Positions 4,389 to 32,237 are shown, numbered from the stretch's first letter. The stretch is 64,000 nucleotides of DNA from Candidatus Saccharimonadales bacterium (GCA_035758565.1 DASTXL010000002.1:83118-147117); one strand, 5' to 3'. The notes: generated from the sequence alone by a model not told the origin. Numbers and translations are program-made.

Positions 4389-4799
4389 CTACTCCAATTT
4401 ATCAATTATTTGTTCAATGTTTGCCGACAAATGCGCCACGTCGATCGCTTCAAAAATATTGTGTTCACTGGCGGTCAAAATACATTTCTTAGCTTTGTTA
4501 AGCCAAGATTTTGCTCGCTTGGCGTTATCGAGCTGATCTTCCCTGGTTTCGCTAAGCTCATAGGCATTAGAGTAAATCCGAGCATCTACTAAATCTTGCT
4601 GCAGGTCCGAAAGAAGTTCGCGGTTCTTAGAACTTAACTCCCCAAAATTAACCTTACGCAAAATCTGCCGCACGTCGCTATCCAAGCGCTTGACCAAAAC
4701 CGATAGCGATTGACTACTCTCCATATACTCCCATGGTAAATTCATTCGTGAATGAAGTACAAGGAAAAAGCGAGCATTGGAATGAGCCGTATTTAACAT
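4389..4799 (-). CDS. Hypothetical protein
   Basis: An ORF fills the gap between efp and rpsR. The helical, charged sequence has no motif I recognise. An internal ATG at 4724 (MESSQSL) preceded by GGGAG may be the true start. Confidence 0.45.
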   Translation of the reverse strand: MLNTAHSNARFFLVLHSRMNLPWEYMESSQSLSVLVKRLDSDVRQILRKVNFGELSSKNRELLSDLQQDLVDARIYSNAYELSETREDQLDNAKRAKSWLNKAKKCILTASEHNIFEAIDVAHLSANIEQIIDKLE

Positions 4800-4855
4800 A
4801 CGGTGAGTGAAACGCGCAGGTTTTGACGCCGTAATTCGCCACGAATAATTTAGCT

Positions 4856-5059
4856 TTAGTTGGTTGCGACGAATGGTAGCAACGCGATATGCCGAGCGCG
4901 CTTTATTGCACGAGCTAATTGGCGTTGTTTAGACTCAGTCAGACCAGTCTTTTTGCGCTGTTCTATCTGGCCGTACTGGTTGATGTAGCGCTGCAAGGTT
5001 TTAAAATCCTTGTAGTCAAAAAATGCTACGTCAGTTCGGTGTTTAAAAATCTTTGCCAT
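4856..5059 (-). CDS. rpsR: 30S ribosomal protein bS18
   Basis: FFDYKDFKTLQRYINQYGQIEQRKKTGLTESKQRQLARAIKRARHIALLPF. Confidence 0.95.
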   Translation of the reverse strand: MAKIFKHRTDVAFFDYKDFKTLQRYINQYGQIEQRKKTGLTESKQRQLARAIKRARHIALLPFVATN

Positions 5060-5065
5060 TAAAAA

Positions 5066-5338
5066 TTATTCTCCGTTAACTATTGAGGCTATTTTAATAT
5101 CAAATTCTGTAGGTAAATCTACTTCAGTAAGTCCGTTTTCTAGTGCACTCTCAACGCCACTAGCCGCCAGGACAAGAGTTTCTCTGCTAAAAGGCATGAG
5201 TGTTCTTATTCTCGCTATATGTACGCCCGAACTCGACTCGAGCTCTGCCAGTCCTCTGAGCACCTGACCATATCTCTTGATAGGCCTACGAGATAAAGGC
5301 ACGCTTTTAGCTTCGGCGGGCGTTAATATTCCTTCCAT
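5066..5338 (-). CDS. Hypothetical 90-aa protein inserted between ssb and rpsR
   Basis: It exactly fills the ssb-rpsR gap and has a strong SD (AAGGAG) 4 nt upstream of the ATG. No family recognised. Confidence 0.55.
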   Translation of the reverse strand: MEGILTPAEAKSVPLSRRPIKRYGQVLRGLAELESSSGVHIARIRTLMPFSRETLVLAASGVESALENGLTEVDLPTEFDIKIASIVNGE

Positions 5339-5346
5339 AAATCTCC

Positions 5347-5820
5347 TTAAAATGGGATGTCGTCGAGGTTGATCGGCTCATCGCCAATATCCTCGATAAC
5401 TACTTCCTCGTCATCCTTAGCTTTGCTGCTTGATTTGCTGGAACTTGCAGGCGCGCTTGAGCCACCACCGTCGCTGCCGCCAGGACCACCCAAGAATGTA
5501 ACGTCCTGGGCTACAACTTCAACTTTGCTACGTTTTTGACCATCTTGCTCCCAGCTACGGCTTTGCAAACGGCCATTAACTAACGCCGGGCGGCCCTTGG
5601 TCAGATACTGGGCAACGCGTTCGCCCAAAGGCCCCCAAGCCACGATGTCGATATAATCGGTCGCTTCGGTCCAGCCGCCATCGCTATTTTTATAGCTGCG
5701 GTTCAGCGCCAGACTAAAACTGCAAACGTTATTGCCATTTGGCGTAGTACGCAGTTCTGGATCGCGCGTTAGGTTGCCCATTAGAATTACTTGATTAAAA
5801 CTTCTTGCCATGGTTCGCAT
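5347..5820 (-). CDS. ssb: Single-stranded DNA-binding protein
   Basis: OB-fold N-terminus (NQVILMGNLTRDPELRTTPNG), Gly/Ser-rich linker, acidic tail ending DDIPF. Confidence 0.95.
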   Translation of the reverse strand: MRTMARSFNQVILMGNLTRDPELRTTPNGNNVCSFSLALNRSYKNSDGGWTEATDYIDIVAWGPLGERVAQYLTKGRPALVNGRLQSRSWEQDGQKRSKVEVVAQDVTFLGGPGGSDGGGSSAPASSSKSSSKAKDDEEVVIEDIGDEPINLDDIPF

Positions 5821-5955
5821 GTTTATGCTTCCAAATTACGGCGTCAAGCCTTCCGTTGCTCCTGCGAAGTAGAGTTCCTACGTCTTAGTCCGCTACTCGG
5901 GCTTTCCTTGTACTTTGTCGCCTAAACATCCTCCTTTTCTTTACTTATCCCTATT

Positions 5956-6339
5956 CTACTCTTCTTCGTTATCGTTATCGTCGTCATCGTTAGAACCGCG
6001 CTCAGCTGCCTTCTTAGCCTTATCGGCTTTGGCGGCTTCGGCTTTGGCGATAGCTTTCAGATCTGGCTTGGTGATCAAAAAGCGAATGATCTCGTCGGTA
6101 ATGTTGAAAACTTGTTCAACACGGGCGACGTTCTCGGCCGGCATCTCAACCGTATAAAAAACGTATACGGCGAAGTCTTGTTTTTTAATTGGGTAGGCTA
6201 ACTTACGTTTGCCCCAATTGTCGGTTTTTTCGATCTTACCGCCATTGTCGGTGATGATTTTTTTGATGCGGGTCTCGGCCTTTTCTAGATCAATTTCTAG
6301 ATCAGGATGATAAAGCACAGCAATTTCGTATGTGTTAAT
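5956..6339 (-). CDS. rpsF: 30S ribosomal protein bS6, probably initiating at ATT
   Basis: S6 fold with an acidic C-terminal tail. The ORF-track start (GTG 6318, MLYHPD) would delete the conserved N-terminal x-x-Y-E-I strand. In-frame upstream codons read ATT AAC ACA TAC GAA ATT GCT GTG, with AAGGAAGGAG ending 6 nt before the ATT at 6339. Confidence 0.85.
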   Translation of the reverse strand: MNTYEIAVLYHPDLEIDLEKAETRIKKIITDNGGKIEKTDNWGKRKLAYPIKKQDFAVYVFYTVEMPAENVARVEQVFNITDEIIRFLITKPDLKAIAKAEAAKADKAKKAAERGSNDDDDNDNEEE

Positions 6340-6375
6340 AACGAACTCCTTCCTTTGGCTCCAAGCTTTCAGTTC

Positions 6376-6506
6376 GCATCAGCCTGTCTGCTAGCAAAGC
6401 CAGCAGCTCCGCTGATGCTTTTGGCGAATTGCGTTGTCGCTTATGCTCAGTCGTTCGCTCAACGTATTTCTATACGCTTCGCTCACTCCTCGCTAGCTCC
6501 TAGCAT
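6376..6506 (-). repeat. Structured repeat element of about 130 nt, copy L, in the rpsF 5' leader
   Basis: Nested hairpin (GCATCAGC 6376-6383 / GCTGATGC 6411-6418 enclosing CTGCT/AGCAG), then TTTTGGCGAATTGC, hairpin CGTAT/ATACG (6462-6476), ACGCTTCG, TCCTAGCA. It is colinear, with near-identical spacing, with 21704-21832 inside fpg. Confidence 0.55.
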
Positions 6507-6585
6507 TTCATCCAAAACTAAAACCTTGGCTTCGGCTGAGCACCTAATTAAGTTGTCCCAACCTGAATTAGTTTTTAGTAGGCAA

Positions 6586-6614
6586 ATTGTAGCACTTTAC
6601 CCCTTATAAATCAA
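6586..6614 (-). promoter_or_regulatory. Sigma-70-type promoter of the rpsF operon
   Basis: The minus strand reads TTGATT-N17-TACAAT (TTGATT = 6614-6609, TACAAT = 6591-6586). This implies a 5' leader of about 240 nt. Confidence 0.6.
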
Positions 6615-19179: not shown

Positions 19180-19260
19180 ATAAGTAGTTTACGTTTTTAT
19201 TTTAGAATCTTCTGTAGTCAGATTATCACCGAAGTTAAGCATAAGCAAGCTATTTTCTTT

Positions 19261-19330
19261 ACCCAGCACTTAGCTTCAAGACAGCCGCTTAAAGCGGCTA
19301 TTATGAAAGATTTGAAGCTAAGTGCTGGGT
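19261..19330. other. 70-nt perfect nested hairpin in the divergent intergenic region upstream of rpsT
   Basis: ACCCAGCACTTAGCTTCAA (19261-19279) pairs perfectly with TTGAAGCTAAGTGCTGGGT (19312-19330). An inner hairpin is AGCCGC/GCGGCT (19283-19299). Confidence 0.6.
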
Positions 19331-19404
19331 TTACAAATTAACACCTTAAAGGTATAGTCATTGCTTGTATCAAGTTTAATCACTCGTTAAGGAGTTAAGT
19401 TTAA

Positions 19405-21173: not shown

Positions 21174-22208
21174 CTAAGGCAAGATTTGGTCGTGCGGGCA
21201 AAAGTGTGTACCTCGGCCAGCTACACGGGTTTTTTCGATAATCGTGCCGCAGCGCGGACACGGCTGGCCTTCTTTTCTAAACACATTGGCAAAGCTTAGG
21301 TAGCTACCTTTGTTGCCTTCGGCATCGACATAGTTTTTATCAGTGCTGCCGCCTTTTTCTATAGATAGTCTTAGCACTTGCAGCAATCCGTTATAAAGAG
21401 CCATGAGCTTGGTTTTAGGGATTTGGCTAACTATGGTTGCCGGGTGAATTTTGGCCAGCCACAGCGATTCGTCGGCATAAATGTTACCCACGCCGGCAAG
21501 CACTGTTTGATCCAGCAAAACGGCTTTAATGTTGCTGTTCTTGCGCCGCATAATACGCTCAATAAACATATCAACCGTAAAGTCGTCTTCTAGCGGTTCC
21601 GGGCCAACCTTTTTAAAGAAATCTATTTCTGGGATTTCGATAGTCGGCATCAGGCGCATCCAGCCGAACTTGCGCTGATCGTTGAAAAACAACTGCGGGC
21701 CGTGTGGGCCTACTTTTGGGCGAAGCCCAAAACTCCGCCCACGCTCTTGGCCGATTGCCTCGTCAGCGACTCCAGTGCTCACGCTTCGTACTTTTTGTAC
21801 GATTTGCTCCGCGCTTCGTCGCTTCCTAGCACTCGGCTCAAGCCCATCGGTTATTTCCGCTTTTCTAGGCTCAAATGTAATAATTACACGCGTAGATTTC
21901 GCGGGCAGGTCGTTCACTAAGTCGGCGTTCGGATGCCCGGCTCCAAACCTTTGTTGGCCGACAAAAACCAGCTGGCCGGTCATTTTTAAGTGGATTATCA
22001 GAGAGTATTGACTAGAAAGATCGATGATCAAAACCTTTGCTCTGCGCCTAACGCCAACTACTTCGGCGCCGACCAAAAAACGCGCTACATCGGCTGGCGC
22101 ATTCGGAAAAGACTTCGGCCAATCGTGCTCGACAGTTTTAATTTTCAAGCCTGGCAAAAGGCGGCTTAAGCCTATGCGGATAGTCTCCACTTCTGGCAAT
22201 TCAGGCAT
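21174..22208 (-). CDS. mutM: Formamidopyrimidine-DNA glycosylase carrying an internal insertion of about 58 aa
   Basis: N-terminal PELPEVE, an H2TH region and a C-terminal zinc finger (CPRCG...FCPHD, where the fourth ligand position is not Cys). At 344 aa it is longer than the roughly 270 aa typical of the family. The extra segment spans residues about 114-171. Confidence 0.9.
   Translation of the reverse strand: MPELPEVETIRIGLSRLLPGLKIKTVEHDWPKSFPNAPADVARFLVGAEVVGVRRRAKVLIIDLSSQYSLIIHLKMTGQLVFVGQQRFGAGHPNADLVNDLPAKSTRVIITFEPRKAEITDGLEPSARKRRSAEQIVQKVRSVSTGVADEAIGQERGRSFGLRPKVGPHGPQLFFNDQRKFGWMRLMPTIEIPEIDFFKKVGPEPLEDDFTVDMFIERIMRRKNSNIKAVLLDQTVLAGVGNIYADESLWLAKIHPATIVSQIPKTKLMALYNGLLQVLRLSIEKGGSTDKNYVDAEGNKGSYLSFANVFRKEGQPCPRCGTIIEKTRVAGRGTHFCPHDQILP
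21704..21832 (-). repeat. Structured repeat element of about 130 nt, copy F, in frame inside fpg
   Basis: Nested hairpin (GTGGGC 21704-21709 / GCCCAC 21737-21742 enclosing TTTTGGGC/GCCCAAAA), then CTCTTGGCCGATTGC, hairpin TCGTAC/GTACGA (21786-21802), GCGCTTCG, TCCTAGCA. The order and spacing match 6376-6506. Confidence 0.55.
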
Positions 22209-22345
22209 TATAACCTTGACCTCTTCTTCTGTTTCAATCCCAGCACTAAAATCTTGATATTCCGCAATCTGATTACAGACTGCTCCATTTCAGGACTTAG
22301 CGCGGGACAGGCTTCGGGTAACTCCGGCATGCGCTAATTATTATA

Positions 22346-28621: not shown

Positions 28622-28763
28622 ATTACCTCGCCCTTGCCCCGCACTAAAACCTGAGCGGAGTAGTTTGTAATCAGATTATGAAGTCTCAAGTTTTTAGTGC
28701 CGGGGTCTCCGCCATTAGGCTAGATTATATACCTTCGGATATAAGCACGCGATTGCTTATGAT

Positions 28764-29904: not shown

Positions 29905-31054
29905 CCTTGAGCTCTTGTGCTTCTTGCATACCCTCTAGATGATTCAGGGCATCTCTTTCTATTTTTCGAATTCTTTCTCTGGCCATTCCCCAGCTTCTTC
30001 CGATTTCGTCCAAAGTTTGAGGCTCGCCCTCAAACCCGTAGCGGGCTGATATAACTTTTCTTTCCATATAGGGCAAGCTGTCTACGAGTTCGCGGATACG
30101 CTCACGGCGAATATCCTCGTGAACGGTTTCTTCGACAGGGGGTTCGGAATCGTTTTCTATCATGTCGCCAAGCTCAGCATCGTCTTCTTCGCCAACGGTC
30201 ATGTTCAAAGATACAGAAGCTCTTACCAGAGACTTAACTTCCTCGACATCCTGAACCGACAGAACGGCTTTGTCGGCAATTTCTTCGTTAGTCGGTTCGC
30301 GCCCTAGCTCCACAACCAAGTCGCGTTCGGCTTTCACAACTTTGTTGAGTTTTTCAACCATGTGCACCGGAATACGGATGGTGCGGGCCTTGTCGGCCAG
30401 GGCCCGGGCTACAGCTTGGCGAATCCACCAGGTAGCGTAAGTAGAGAATTTGAAACCTTTGCGCCAGTCGAACTTTTCAGTGGCTCGATTTAACCCGATG
30501 CATCCCTCTTGAATTAAATCCAAAAAGGGCAGGCCTTGGTTTCGATAACGCTTGGCAATAGAAACCACTAAGCGCAGGTTACTCTCTACCATTTTTTCCT
30601 TGGCCGCCGCATCGCCTCTCTCAATTCTTTTGGCCAGAGTCACCTCTTGATCCGCAGTCAGTAAAGGGTGTTTACCTACCTCTCTTAAGAAAAGCTGTAA
30701 ACTATCCAGCGAGCCGCTCCTAATCAGCTCATCAATTTCCTGCTCCTCACCCTCGTGGTCGCCGTTGATAGTCACCCCCGATTGTTCGATCATGTGAATC
30801 ACCCGGCTAACATCGTGATCCTCTAAACCTAAGCCGTCACAGGCACTGGTAATTGATTCTAGATCAATAAGGCCGTGGTTCTGGGCCGACTCGAGTAAAG
30901 AGCTTATCTCTGGCTGACTTAAAAGATCCGCATAATTGTCGATTCCTGATTCATAACCGCCACCTACCACTTCTAGGTGTGGCTGCGAATAGTAGGCGGC
31001 AGGTCCGTCTTCTTCCGGAGCAATACTAGTATTAAAACTTGGCCCGAATTCCAT
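29897..31054 (-). CDS. RpoD-type sigma-70 factor, second tandem copy
   Basis: Regions 1.2-4 are present: [46 protein letters not shown], and the C-terminal 4.2 [22 protein letters not shown]. Confidence 0.85.
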
Positions 31055-31097: not shown

Positions 31098-32237
31098 TTA
31101 CTGCAGGTATTCGTGCAGACGGCGGGTTTCTTTGTTCTTGCGCAGTTTAGCCAGGGCTTTGGCTTCGATCTGACGGATGCGCTCGCGGGTAACGCTGAAC
31201 TCCTGACCGACTTCTTCTAGAGTGTGGCTTTTGCCGTCCTCTAGGCCAAAACGTAGCTTTAAGATCTTTTGTTCGCGCTCGGTTAGTGTGCCTAAGATTT
31301 GACGAACTTGTTCTTTGAGCAGCTGTTCGCTGGCAGACTCGGTAGGACTTTTTTGGTCTTCGTCCTCGATAAAATCGCCCAAAACGCTATCTTCTTCGTC
31401 GTCGCGGACCGAAGCATCGAGCGAACTGATATCTTGTTTAATTTTCATGATGTGCTCGACCTTGTCGACATCCATCTCCATAGCAACGGCAATTTCTTCG
31501 TTGGTCGGTTCGCGGTTTAACTCCTGAGTCAGGCGGCGCTGGGTGCGCAGCAGCTTATTGATAGTTTCGACCATGTGCACCGGAATACGGATGGTGCGGG
31601 CCTGGTCGGCAATGGCCCGGGTGATAGCTTGGCGAATCCACCAAGTTGCATAAGTAGAAAATTTGAAACCGCGTTCTGGATCGAATTTTTCTACTGCGCG
31701 CAACAAACCAGTGTTGCCTTCTTGGATTAAATCAAGCAGGTCTAAGCCACGGCCTACATAACGCTTAGCAATAGAGACTACCAAACGCATGTTGGCTTCG
31801 GCCATTTGGTCTTTGGCCCGTTTGTCGCCGGACACGACCCTTTTAGCCAGCGCCAACTCTTCTTCGGCGGACAAAAGCGGGATTTTACCGATTTCGCGCA
31901 AGTAAAGACGCACGCTGTCATCGGCAATATCGTCTATATAAGAGTTGTCCTCTTTTAGAAGTTCTTCTTCGGCTTCCTCTTCTTCCCAATCGCTCAGTTC
32001 TACGGCGTCAGGTTCGGTAGCCGGCAGCAGTTCGATGTCGTTTTCGGTCATTTCGGCATATAGGCGTTCCAGCACATCGATATTTGCCGGAGCGTCTGGA
32101 ATCAATGCGAAAATATCGCGCTGATCGAGTTTACCGTCTTTCTTACCCTGCTCGAGCAACTGGGTAATTTCTTTATCATAAGTTTTGTTGGTCCGCTTGG
32201 GCGCGGCCTTCTTGTCTTCAGCTTTCTTTCTGGGCAT
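31098..32237 (-). CDS. rpoD: RNA polymerase primary-like sigma factor
   Basis: [69 protein letters not shown]. It lies directly downstream of dnaG, as in the classical dnaG-rpoD arrangement. Confidence 0.9.

Follow-up and report, generated by a model that had tools for sequence, protein, structure and literature searches.

A structured repeat inserted in frame in fpg of a Saccharimonadia bacterium probably belongs to a dispersed family that behaves like Rickettsia palindromic elements

In a 64,000-nucleotide stretch of DNA from Candidatus Saccharimonadales bacterium (GCA_035758565.1 DASTXL010000002.1:83118-147117; hereafter the window), the fpg gene, which encodes formamidopyrimidine-DNA glycosylase (Fpg), carries an extra segment of about 58 codons. 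What is this segment, and how might it have come to lie within a DNA repair gene? An initial annotation had claimed that it is a hairpin-rich in-frame insertion, homologous to a repeat in the leader of rpsF and resembling the Rickettsia palindromic elements (RPEs). We find that the insert is very probably a copy of a dispersed, non-autonomous, structured repeat of Saccharimonadia that behaves like the RPEs.

The host gene (21174-22208, minus strand) is a 344-amino acid open reading frame (ORF) with all three domains of Fpg/MutM proteins (Fapy_DNA_glyco, H2TH and zf-FPG; Pfam PF01149, PF06831 and PF06827) and matches Fpg proteins in the PDB with E = 6e-53. Residues 1-80 align to residues 1-80 of solved Fpg structures and residues 171-339 to residues 102-268, which places the extra segment between the two blocks. 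As first delimited, the insert occupies 21696-21869 on the minus strand, exactly codons P114-P171 (PRKAE...PHGP), and comparison with P0004/L206, the closest allele that has no insert (84% identity over the host part), gives it a size of 55-56 codons, with the junctions TTT-GAG / CCT...CAC / GGC-CCG (slashes mark the insert boundaries). The reading frame is open across the insert, and PELPEVE at the N-terminus, the lysine of RRAK and the H2TH motif are all preserved; a peptide spanning the insert junction would read, for example, VIITFEPRKAEITDGLEPSAR. We infer from the open frame that Fpg is translated straight through the insert. In an AlphaFold2 model computed on the Fpg alignment, which is of moderate quality as a whole (predicted local distance difference test score, pLDDT, of 71), the fold is otherwise recognisable and the insert forms a loop between strands 106-112 and 172-177, with residues 118-168 at a pLDDT of 25-30. 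For the insert peptide the model thus predicts a disordered loop, set between two beta-strands. At its C-terminus (21174-21200) the protein ends in ...THFCPHDQ, with Asp in place of the fourth zinc-finger Cys; Asp or Glu is found at this position in orthologues P0002, P0010, P0054 and P0088 as well, and most orthologues have CPxCQ.

The claimed homology to the rpsF leader is borne out. The similarity is modest: the Smith-Waterman score of the fpg insert against 6376-6506 is 32, compared to 17.9 +/- 2.65 for dinucleotide shuffles, of which 1 in 500 reaches 32. This link is caught only by Smith-Waterman alignment with shuffles and by structure-aware models; a default repeat finder, blastn and nhmmer all missed it. 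The sense RNA of the fpg insert also folds far more stably than its shuffles (z = -5.35) and adopts the three-helix shape that the rpsF leader segment (z = -4.73) also takes. Together with the copies described below, these data define the element as a nucleotide-level unit of about 150-180 nt with a three-way fold, consisting of a closing helix (P1), a rod (P2) and a hairpin (P3), and with a short form that consists of P2 only.

In fpg, the full element with a few flanking bases extends over 21684-21863, and it and all of its parts lie on the minus strand. The 5' strand of P1 (GGAAATAACCGATGGG, 21843-21858) is new sequence that is missing from the empty allele. P2 (21746-21842) is a 97-nt rod-like hairpin in which both the CGUA/UACG stem at the apex and the internal loops, which are rich in purines (GGA, CGA, GCGGA / GAGCA, GGAG, GAC), are conserved, and P3 (21702-21744) is a 43-nt hairpin. 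The 3' strand of P1 (21685-21699) is host coding sequence; its codons (P-Q-L-F-F) lie where the conserved LFFNDQRKFG motif begins, and it covaries with the 5' strand across orthologues. The initial description needs correction here, since the element is no simple palindrome and is closed by a site-specific helix made partly of host codons.

To describe the family we used two covariance models. The first, R1, was built from an alignment of eight sequences (the two window copies, five other inserts in fpg and one from a second fpg site) in which 45 of the 58 consensus pairs show compensatory changes. The second, R2, was built from 44 metagenome copies only; these contain no window sequences and were collected with R1 and a pattern, both derived from window copies. 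The fpg element scores 189 bits with R1 and 145.9 bits with R2 (E = 9.5e-40), and R2 recovers four copies in the window. One is a full-length sense copy in the rpsF 5' leader (6358-6536, minus strand; R2 132.4 bits, E = 6.7e-36), which ends about 10 nt ahead of the Shine-Dalgarno sequence; each of its frames contains 3-5 stops. The other two, first revealed by R1, are short forms that fold as P2 with a closing helix of their own. One lies between rpsF and ssb in the sense orientation (5832-5917, minus strand; R1 63.4 bits, E = 1e-18; R2 66.7 bits over 5777-5942) and the other just past the rpsR stop, antisense to the operon (4747-4843, plus strand; R1 66 bits, E = 1.6e-19; R2 89 bits over 4731-4879), where it coincides with inverted repeat I2. 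The rpsF-ssb-rpsR operon therefore holds three copies of the element. One further observation concerns the start of rpsF itself (6318-6345). Its first canonical start codon (GTG at 6318) is downstream of the conserved N-terminus of S6 (NTYEI), and past the Shine-Dalgarno sequence GGAAGGAG the sole start candidate is a non-canonical ATT near 6336.

Outside the window, fpg-centred loci of species-representative genomes (1.4 Mb in total) yield 9 further R1 matches, one of them weak, and most of these loci have none. A strand-specific scan of a metagenome collection for a P2 pattern returned at least 120 stretches, and R1 confirms at least 84 matches in 80 metagenome loci, four of which are duplicates, so that distinct numbers, in the counts of context below as well, are slightly lower. 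In all, other Saccharimonadia DNA holds at least about 87 copies, about 20 of which lie in frame and in sense within unrelated genes. Across 55 copies, 92.4% of pair cells are paired, compared to 66.5% in shuffles and 29-42% in slid controls, and 51 of the 58 pairs show double changes. Two copies within 1-9 kb of each other are found on the short metagenome contigs L139, L141, L111, L154, L087, L093 and L155, and the locus L039 has three in 20 kb, whereas most of the 80 species-representative loci have none, which suggests lineage-specific expansions. A search of the whole window with Rfam 15 at gathering thresholds returned three tRNAs only, and at E = 10 there is no match at 21640-21910 or 4700-6600.

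Is the conserved object the peptide or the nucleic acid? In codon-aligned fpg orthologues, the third-position identity of the host part is 0.33-0.41, close to saturation. Within the insert it is 0.56-0.82, similar to the 0.66-0.83 found at first and second positions. In L001 and L125, moreover, the same element DNA is read in another frame. The equal conservation at all codon positions, the change of frame and the fold together indicate that the conserved object is nucleic acid. The window peptide, when compared by phmmer with 1.8 billion representative proteins, matched only one further Fpg and one spurious repeat protein, which shows that peptide searches are the wrong tool for this element, and a profile search with the insert peptide, which failed to match even its source Fpg proteins, is uninformative.

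These results bear directly on the idea that the segment is a lineage-specific loop or domain of Fpg under protein-level selection, or else that it is taken out of the product as an intervening sequence, be it an intron, an intein or a translational bypass. The peptide does look conserved among insert-bearing Fpg proteins, and a helix that joins the ends of the insert to downstream exon-like sequence is superficially intron-like. However, the equal conservation of codon positions, the change of frame and the presence of the element in more than 15 other genes, as well as in non-coding DNA, refute a protein domain. No group I, group II or other Rfam family matches the element. The frame that is used is always open, which would be unneeded under removal or bypass, and removal at P1 would take out conserved host codons too. 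An intein is rejected because the insert has 58 amino acids (inteins have at least about 130), begins with PRKAE and ends with PHGP followed by Q, and has no intein end motifs, which would be an N-terminal Cys or Ser and a C-terminal His-Asn with a nucleophile downstream. Diversity-generating retroelements and CRISPR repeats were likewise rejected, there being no repeat pairing of that kind. We consider this whole group of explanations very improbable.

Copies in other genes show the same behaviour as the one in fpg. In a UDG-family gene, a 48-amino acid copy lies in frame between ...KQSG and ELVLVILPLF and is lacking in the orthologue of L083. In polA, an in-frame copy lies directly ahead of LLQIHDS, and another polA has a copy at its 5' end. 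An in-frame copy in truB precedes KVGHTGTLDP, and the second fpg site lies between QLVFV and FGAGHP. Hosts confirmed by Pfam include MsrA, FolD, UvrD/PcrA, Dus, YjbR, Glu/Leu/Phe/Val dehydrogenase (GDH), TsaD, CysS, a Mur ligase and a methyltransferase, and further genic examples were identified by eye. In one UvrD/PcrA gene (L165:2960-6355), an N-terminal element copy directly ahead of the MGTFHS motif coexists with an intein (Pfam Intein_splicing, residues 329-669). Across sites, each of the three sense frames serves as the coding frame, and the frame that is used has no stops, compared to 1-5 in the other frames. The behaviour predicted in the initial annotation, in-frame insertion into protein-coding genes, is thus found in many unrelated genes and in all three frames.

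The orientation of the copies depends on where they lie. Among 91 copies, 24 are inside sense ORFs and 2 inside antisense ORFs, both of the latter being short forms or in doubtful ORFs. Intergenic copies between co-directional genes are divided between 17 in sense and 20 in antisense. Antisense frames are in fact open more often than sense frames (71 versus 33 of 165). The peptides that they encode are hydrophobic and rich in Cys, Leu and Phe (grand average of hydropathy, GRAVY, +0.24), whereas the sense peptides are hydrophilic, rich in Ala, Ser, Gly, Arg, Gln and Glu (GRAVY -0.90). Given this difference, the sense bias in genes is explained more simply by selection on the added loop than by oriented insertion. 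The element therefore occupies intergenic DNA in both orientations and many unrelated housekeeping genes nearly always in sense and in frame, in any of three frames. We suggest that copies would arise at the DNA level regardless of orientation, and that selection would then retain only those genic copies with an open frame and a harmless hydrophilic loop. In many antisense intergenic copies (for example 4747-4843 in the window, and L115, L117, L120 and L121), the 3' end of the element lies 0-13 nt from the stop of a convergent gene; the transcript of that gene then has the reverse complement of the element directly behind its stop codon, in the manner of a terminator or a stabiliser of the 3' end.

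The distribution among Fpg orthologues likewise fits an insertion. The annotation had pointed out that a segment of similar length in all orthologues of the lineage would speak against it, and most Saccharimonadales Fpg proteins turn out to be without the segment. In the protein database, the relatives have bimodal lengths of about 290 and 343 amino acids, and an alignment shows, at a single site, a block of 51-58 residues in the long proteins that the short ones lack. Among 80 fpg loci from species-representative genomes, 70 have the short spacing, none has the window-type insert and one, L039, has the element at the second fpg site. Shorter inserts of 11-39 amino acids at this second site (L061:10250-10366, L012:6124-6177, L036:10250-10303 and P0106) are not recognised by the covariance model and may be remnants or unrelated loop expansions.

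In a tree of Fpg host parts, the sampling of which is skewed to insert carriers because the query contained the insert, the window protein and P0002 nest in an otherwise insert-free clade (84% identity), and other insert-bearing Fpg proteins are 66-74% identical in the host part. In the closest insert-bearing relative, P0002/L001, this site of fpg is filled by a homologous insert that is read in a different frame, the usual frame being interrupted by a stop. P3 has changed in a clean compensatory manner between the two (GTGGGC/GCCCAC against GCTTCC/GGAAGC). The window core is 77-82% identical to the cores in distant fpg hosts and only 58% identical to that of its sister P0002/L001, no higher than its identity to copies in other genes or to the rpsF leader copy of its own genome. 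It follows that this site in fpg has been filled by two element lineages. Within the main fpg lineage, the branching of the element roughly follows that of the host; given the saturated synonymous sites, this indicates long-term preservation of the fold.

The most unusual part of the element is P1. Its duplex energy, computed for 34 nt on each side of the core, is -23.9 +/- 5.4 kcal/mol compared to -13.0 +/- 4.2 kcal/mol for mismatched partners, and it is paired in nearly all copies. At the same time, P1 sequences are unrelated among copies, even between two copies on one contig with P2 about 85-90% identical. Each outer position shows all four Watson-Crick pair types, and only the inner 4 bp or so are semi-conserved (CGCA ... 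GG-TGCG). In every genic case with a boundary fixed by an insert-free homologue, the 3' strand is host sequence: xLFF at fpg site 1, RWGA at fpg site 2, VLVIL in the UDG-family gene and HILL in polA. By alignment to solved structures the same strand is FRILL in MsrA (2j89 residues 159-163) and ASLTV in GDH (KGKTI of 1gtm). The host part is typically the start of a strongly conserved motif. Comparisons of filled and empty sites show that the 5' strand is net new sequence, and across fpg orthologues it follows the synonymous differences of the host strand. In FolD, the boundary between host and insert is not assignable.

This helix argues against a classical MITE (miniature inverted-repeat transposable element), that is, a deletion derivative of an insertion sequence that is moved in trans by a transposase acting on conserved terminal inverted repeats and that leaves direct target-site duplications. 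The element is small, non-coding, palindromic, multi-copy and patchy among lineages, as a MITE would be, and in-frame MITE insertions are known (PMC10969869). However, conservation is lowest at its termini, which are different at each site. For fpg (against P0004/L206) and UDG, the two cases in which a junction was set beside an allele without the insert, there is no direct duplication. The flanks form an inverted and not a direct repeat. P1 is the opposite of a transposase-bound terminal repeat, and we regard a MITE as unlikely. A direct repeat around the GDH insert (WQD...WQD) was considered as a target duplication and rejected, since it is the element's own conserved GCAGGAC. A unit like the repetitive extragenic palindromic sequences (REPs) and REPINs, moved on single-stranded DNA hairpins by a REP-associated tyrosine transposase (RAYT; IS200/IS605-type Y1 transposase), would fit a hairpin-based architecture that has neither terminal repeats nor target duplications, and the conserved GTA(C/T) tetranucleotides of the apical stem loosely recall tagged REPs (PMC3733652). 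However, REPs are extragenic and 20-40 nt long, the element is 100-180 nt long with about a quarter of its copies intragenic, and a site-specific closing helix is foreign to REPINs. This explanation is, in our judgement, more improbable still.

How, then, could an element with no known transposase acquire a helix that is complementary to its host? Two processes offer leads. In quasipalindrome template-switch mutagenesis, an intrastrand switch extends or perfects a hairpin stem by copying the opposite flank. Homing introns carry a segment complementary to the flanking exon (the internal guide sequence and P10, or the exon- and intron-binding sites). To our knowledge, neither template switching at quasipalindromes nor intron guide pairing is known to create such a dispersed family, and the resemblance to both is a lead on mechanism only. 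Neither a ribozyme core nor a reverse transcriptase is associated with the element. The host-complementary helix might stem from fold-back template switching that copies the element in independently of a transposase, or from homing, in a guide-like manner, to conserved coding sequence. We tentatively propose that the element is copied in by template switching during replication or repair, in place of a transposase binding terminal repeats. The structured core would be copied, and the nascent antisense strand would then fold back and copy the adjacent flank, giving each copy its closing helix, the outer 8-12 bp of which would repeat, in inverted form, the host sequence immediately 3' of the insert. 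Pairing in P1, P2 and P3 would then be kept by continued templated correction or by selection on the fold.

Several observations weigh against the view of the insert as a copy of a selfish, mobile repeat, or limit how far the numbers above carry it. No movement has been observed, and copies in the same genome are only 57-58% identical in the core, giving no sign of recent bursts. The stability of P1 is uncorrelated with the closeness of the core to the consensus (rho = 0.08), which leaves a helix that is made once at insertion and then decays unsupported. The alignments behind the pair counts were fitted to the model and lean towards its structure, so that pairing is somewhat inflated; the counts of genomic context use our own simple longest-ORF rule as gene calls; disrupted alleles would escape protein databases, which list called genes only; and the case for translation through the insert draws on open frames only. 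Finally, cores at the orthologous fpg site are 77-84% identical even though the synonymous sites of the host are saturated. Such conservation is unexpected for a dead, purely selfish insert and argues for function or ongoing correction.

This last point is also the first in favour of the strongest alternative, in which the element is a structured RNA useful to the host (for mRNA stability, processing, protein binding or translation pausing) that selection keeps wherever it lies, ORFs included, its spread being secondary or ancient. The abundant compensatory changes, the conserved internal-loop purines and CGUA/UACG apex, the rough match of element and host trees in the main fpg lineage and the maintenance of P1 whatever the divergence of the core are all consistent with such an RNA, as are the sense orientation of full-length copies in genes and leaders and the grouping of three copies in the rpsF-ssb-rpsR operon. 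Against it stand the nearly equal intergenic orientations, host genes without a common pathway, the lack of the element in most related genomes and most fpg orthologues, the two element lineages at one fpg site in sister hosts, and the lack of an Rfam match even at E = 10. We consider this explanation possible, though not probable, and it is compatible with a repeat that behaves like the RPEs. If the fold inside ORFs is under purifying selection, it may have a role for the cell or for the element at the level of RNA or single-stranded DNA. There is some chance that the element spreads by a mechanism undescribed for bacterial mobile DNA, in which a host-complementary stretch is acquired or acts as a guide and the insert is clamped by a helix that belongs half to the element and half to the host gene, and that its fold is also possibly under purifying selection in ORFs.

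As a description of behaviour, the reading of the insert as an RPE-like in-frame selfish repeat is well supported. The RPEs were reportedly characterized by Ogata et al. in 2000 and 2002. The element shares with them hairpin-forming repeats of about 100-180 bp with many copies in a small, reduced genome, in-frame insertion in unrelated housekeeping genes with intact ORFs, and no known transposase of its own, although no search for such a gene was made. An RPE peptide sits where the fold of the protein tolerates it, as may be the case for the low-pLDDT loop predicted here between two strands. The resemblance proposed in the initial annotation therefore stands as a functional one and not as demonstrated homology: the host belongs to Saccharimonadia within the candidate phyla radiation (CPR), and we set the element beside the RPEs by behaviour, expecting no relationship in sequence. 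The element also differs from the RPEs in being read in all three frames, in its three-helix architecture, closed by a site-specific helix partly made of host codons, and in a fold that is preserved, through compensatory changes, at orthologous sites of deeply diverged hosts. Two of these features, the site-specific P1 sequence with its 3' strand of host codons and the fold kept at orthologous sites, are new relative to the RPEs.

Other structured repeats are more distant. ERIC, BOX, Correia, Nezha and QMITE1, bacterial MITEs found within transcribed or coding regions, are also small and non-autonomous and can give in-frame fusions or affect mRNAs (PMC10969869). Unlike the present element, in which the termini are unconserved and direct duplications are not seen, they either show direct target duplications and terminal inverted repeats that are conserved, or are built from defined modules. 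A distant analogue is found in the mitochondrial genomes of Nematomorpha, where long hairpin-forming inverted repeats lie in functional genes with both fold and coding kept (PMC6649704). There, both arms code for conserved protein and no dispersed element has been inserted (PMC6649704), whereas in the present element host coding sequence makes up no more than the outer helix's 3' strand, and the core is a mobile-type module common to the copies. In-frame coding elements outside Rickettsia are seldom described, and a 2024 review of MITEs presents the RPEs as the outstanding case of in-frame insertion (PMC10969869). In the full-text literature on Saccharibacteria, Patescibacteria and the candidate phyla radiation we found no description of palindromic or miniature inverted-repeat elements of this kind.

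The window also contains other repeats. A motif unrelated to the element, with the core CCCAGCACTWA, occurs at 22239-22286, just upstream of the fpg start, with an inverted copy 6.4 kb away at 28657-28704 (48 nt, 81%), and as a pair at 19251-19340 that forms a near-perfect palindrome with a fold of about -50 kcal/mol. A direct repeat, D1 (30274-30457 and 31487-31670), has two copies of 184 nt with 80% identity, 1.2 kb apart.

In-frame "coding palindromes" have so far been treated as a peculiarity of Rickettsia. An independent and abundant family in Saccharibacteria would mean that a second, unrelated lineage with reduced genomes tolerates selfish-looking DNA in essential genes, the hosts of which include genes for DNA repair, replication, tRNA modification and aminoacylation. 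For annotation and phylogenomics of the CPR, length differences of 50-60 residues between orthologues may be element insertions and not domain gains, and the covariance model can be used to mask them. Lastly, the host-templated closing helix and the long-preserved fold offer handles on how an element without a known transposase inserts and is maintained.

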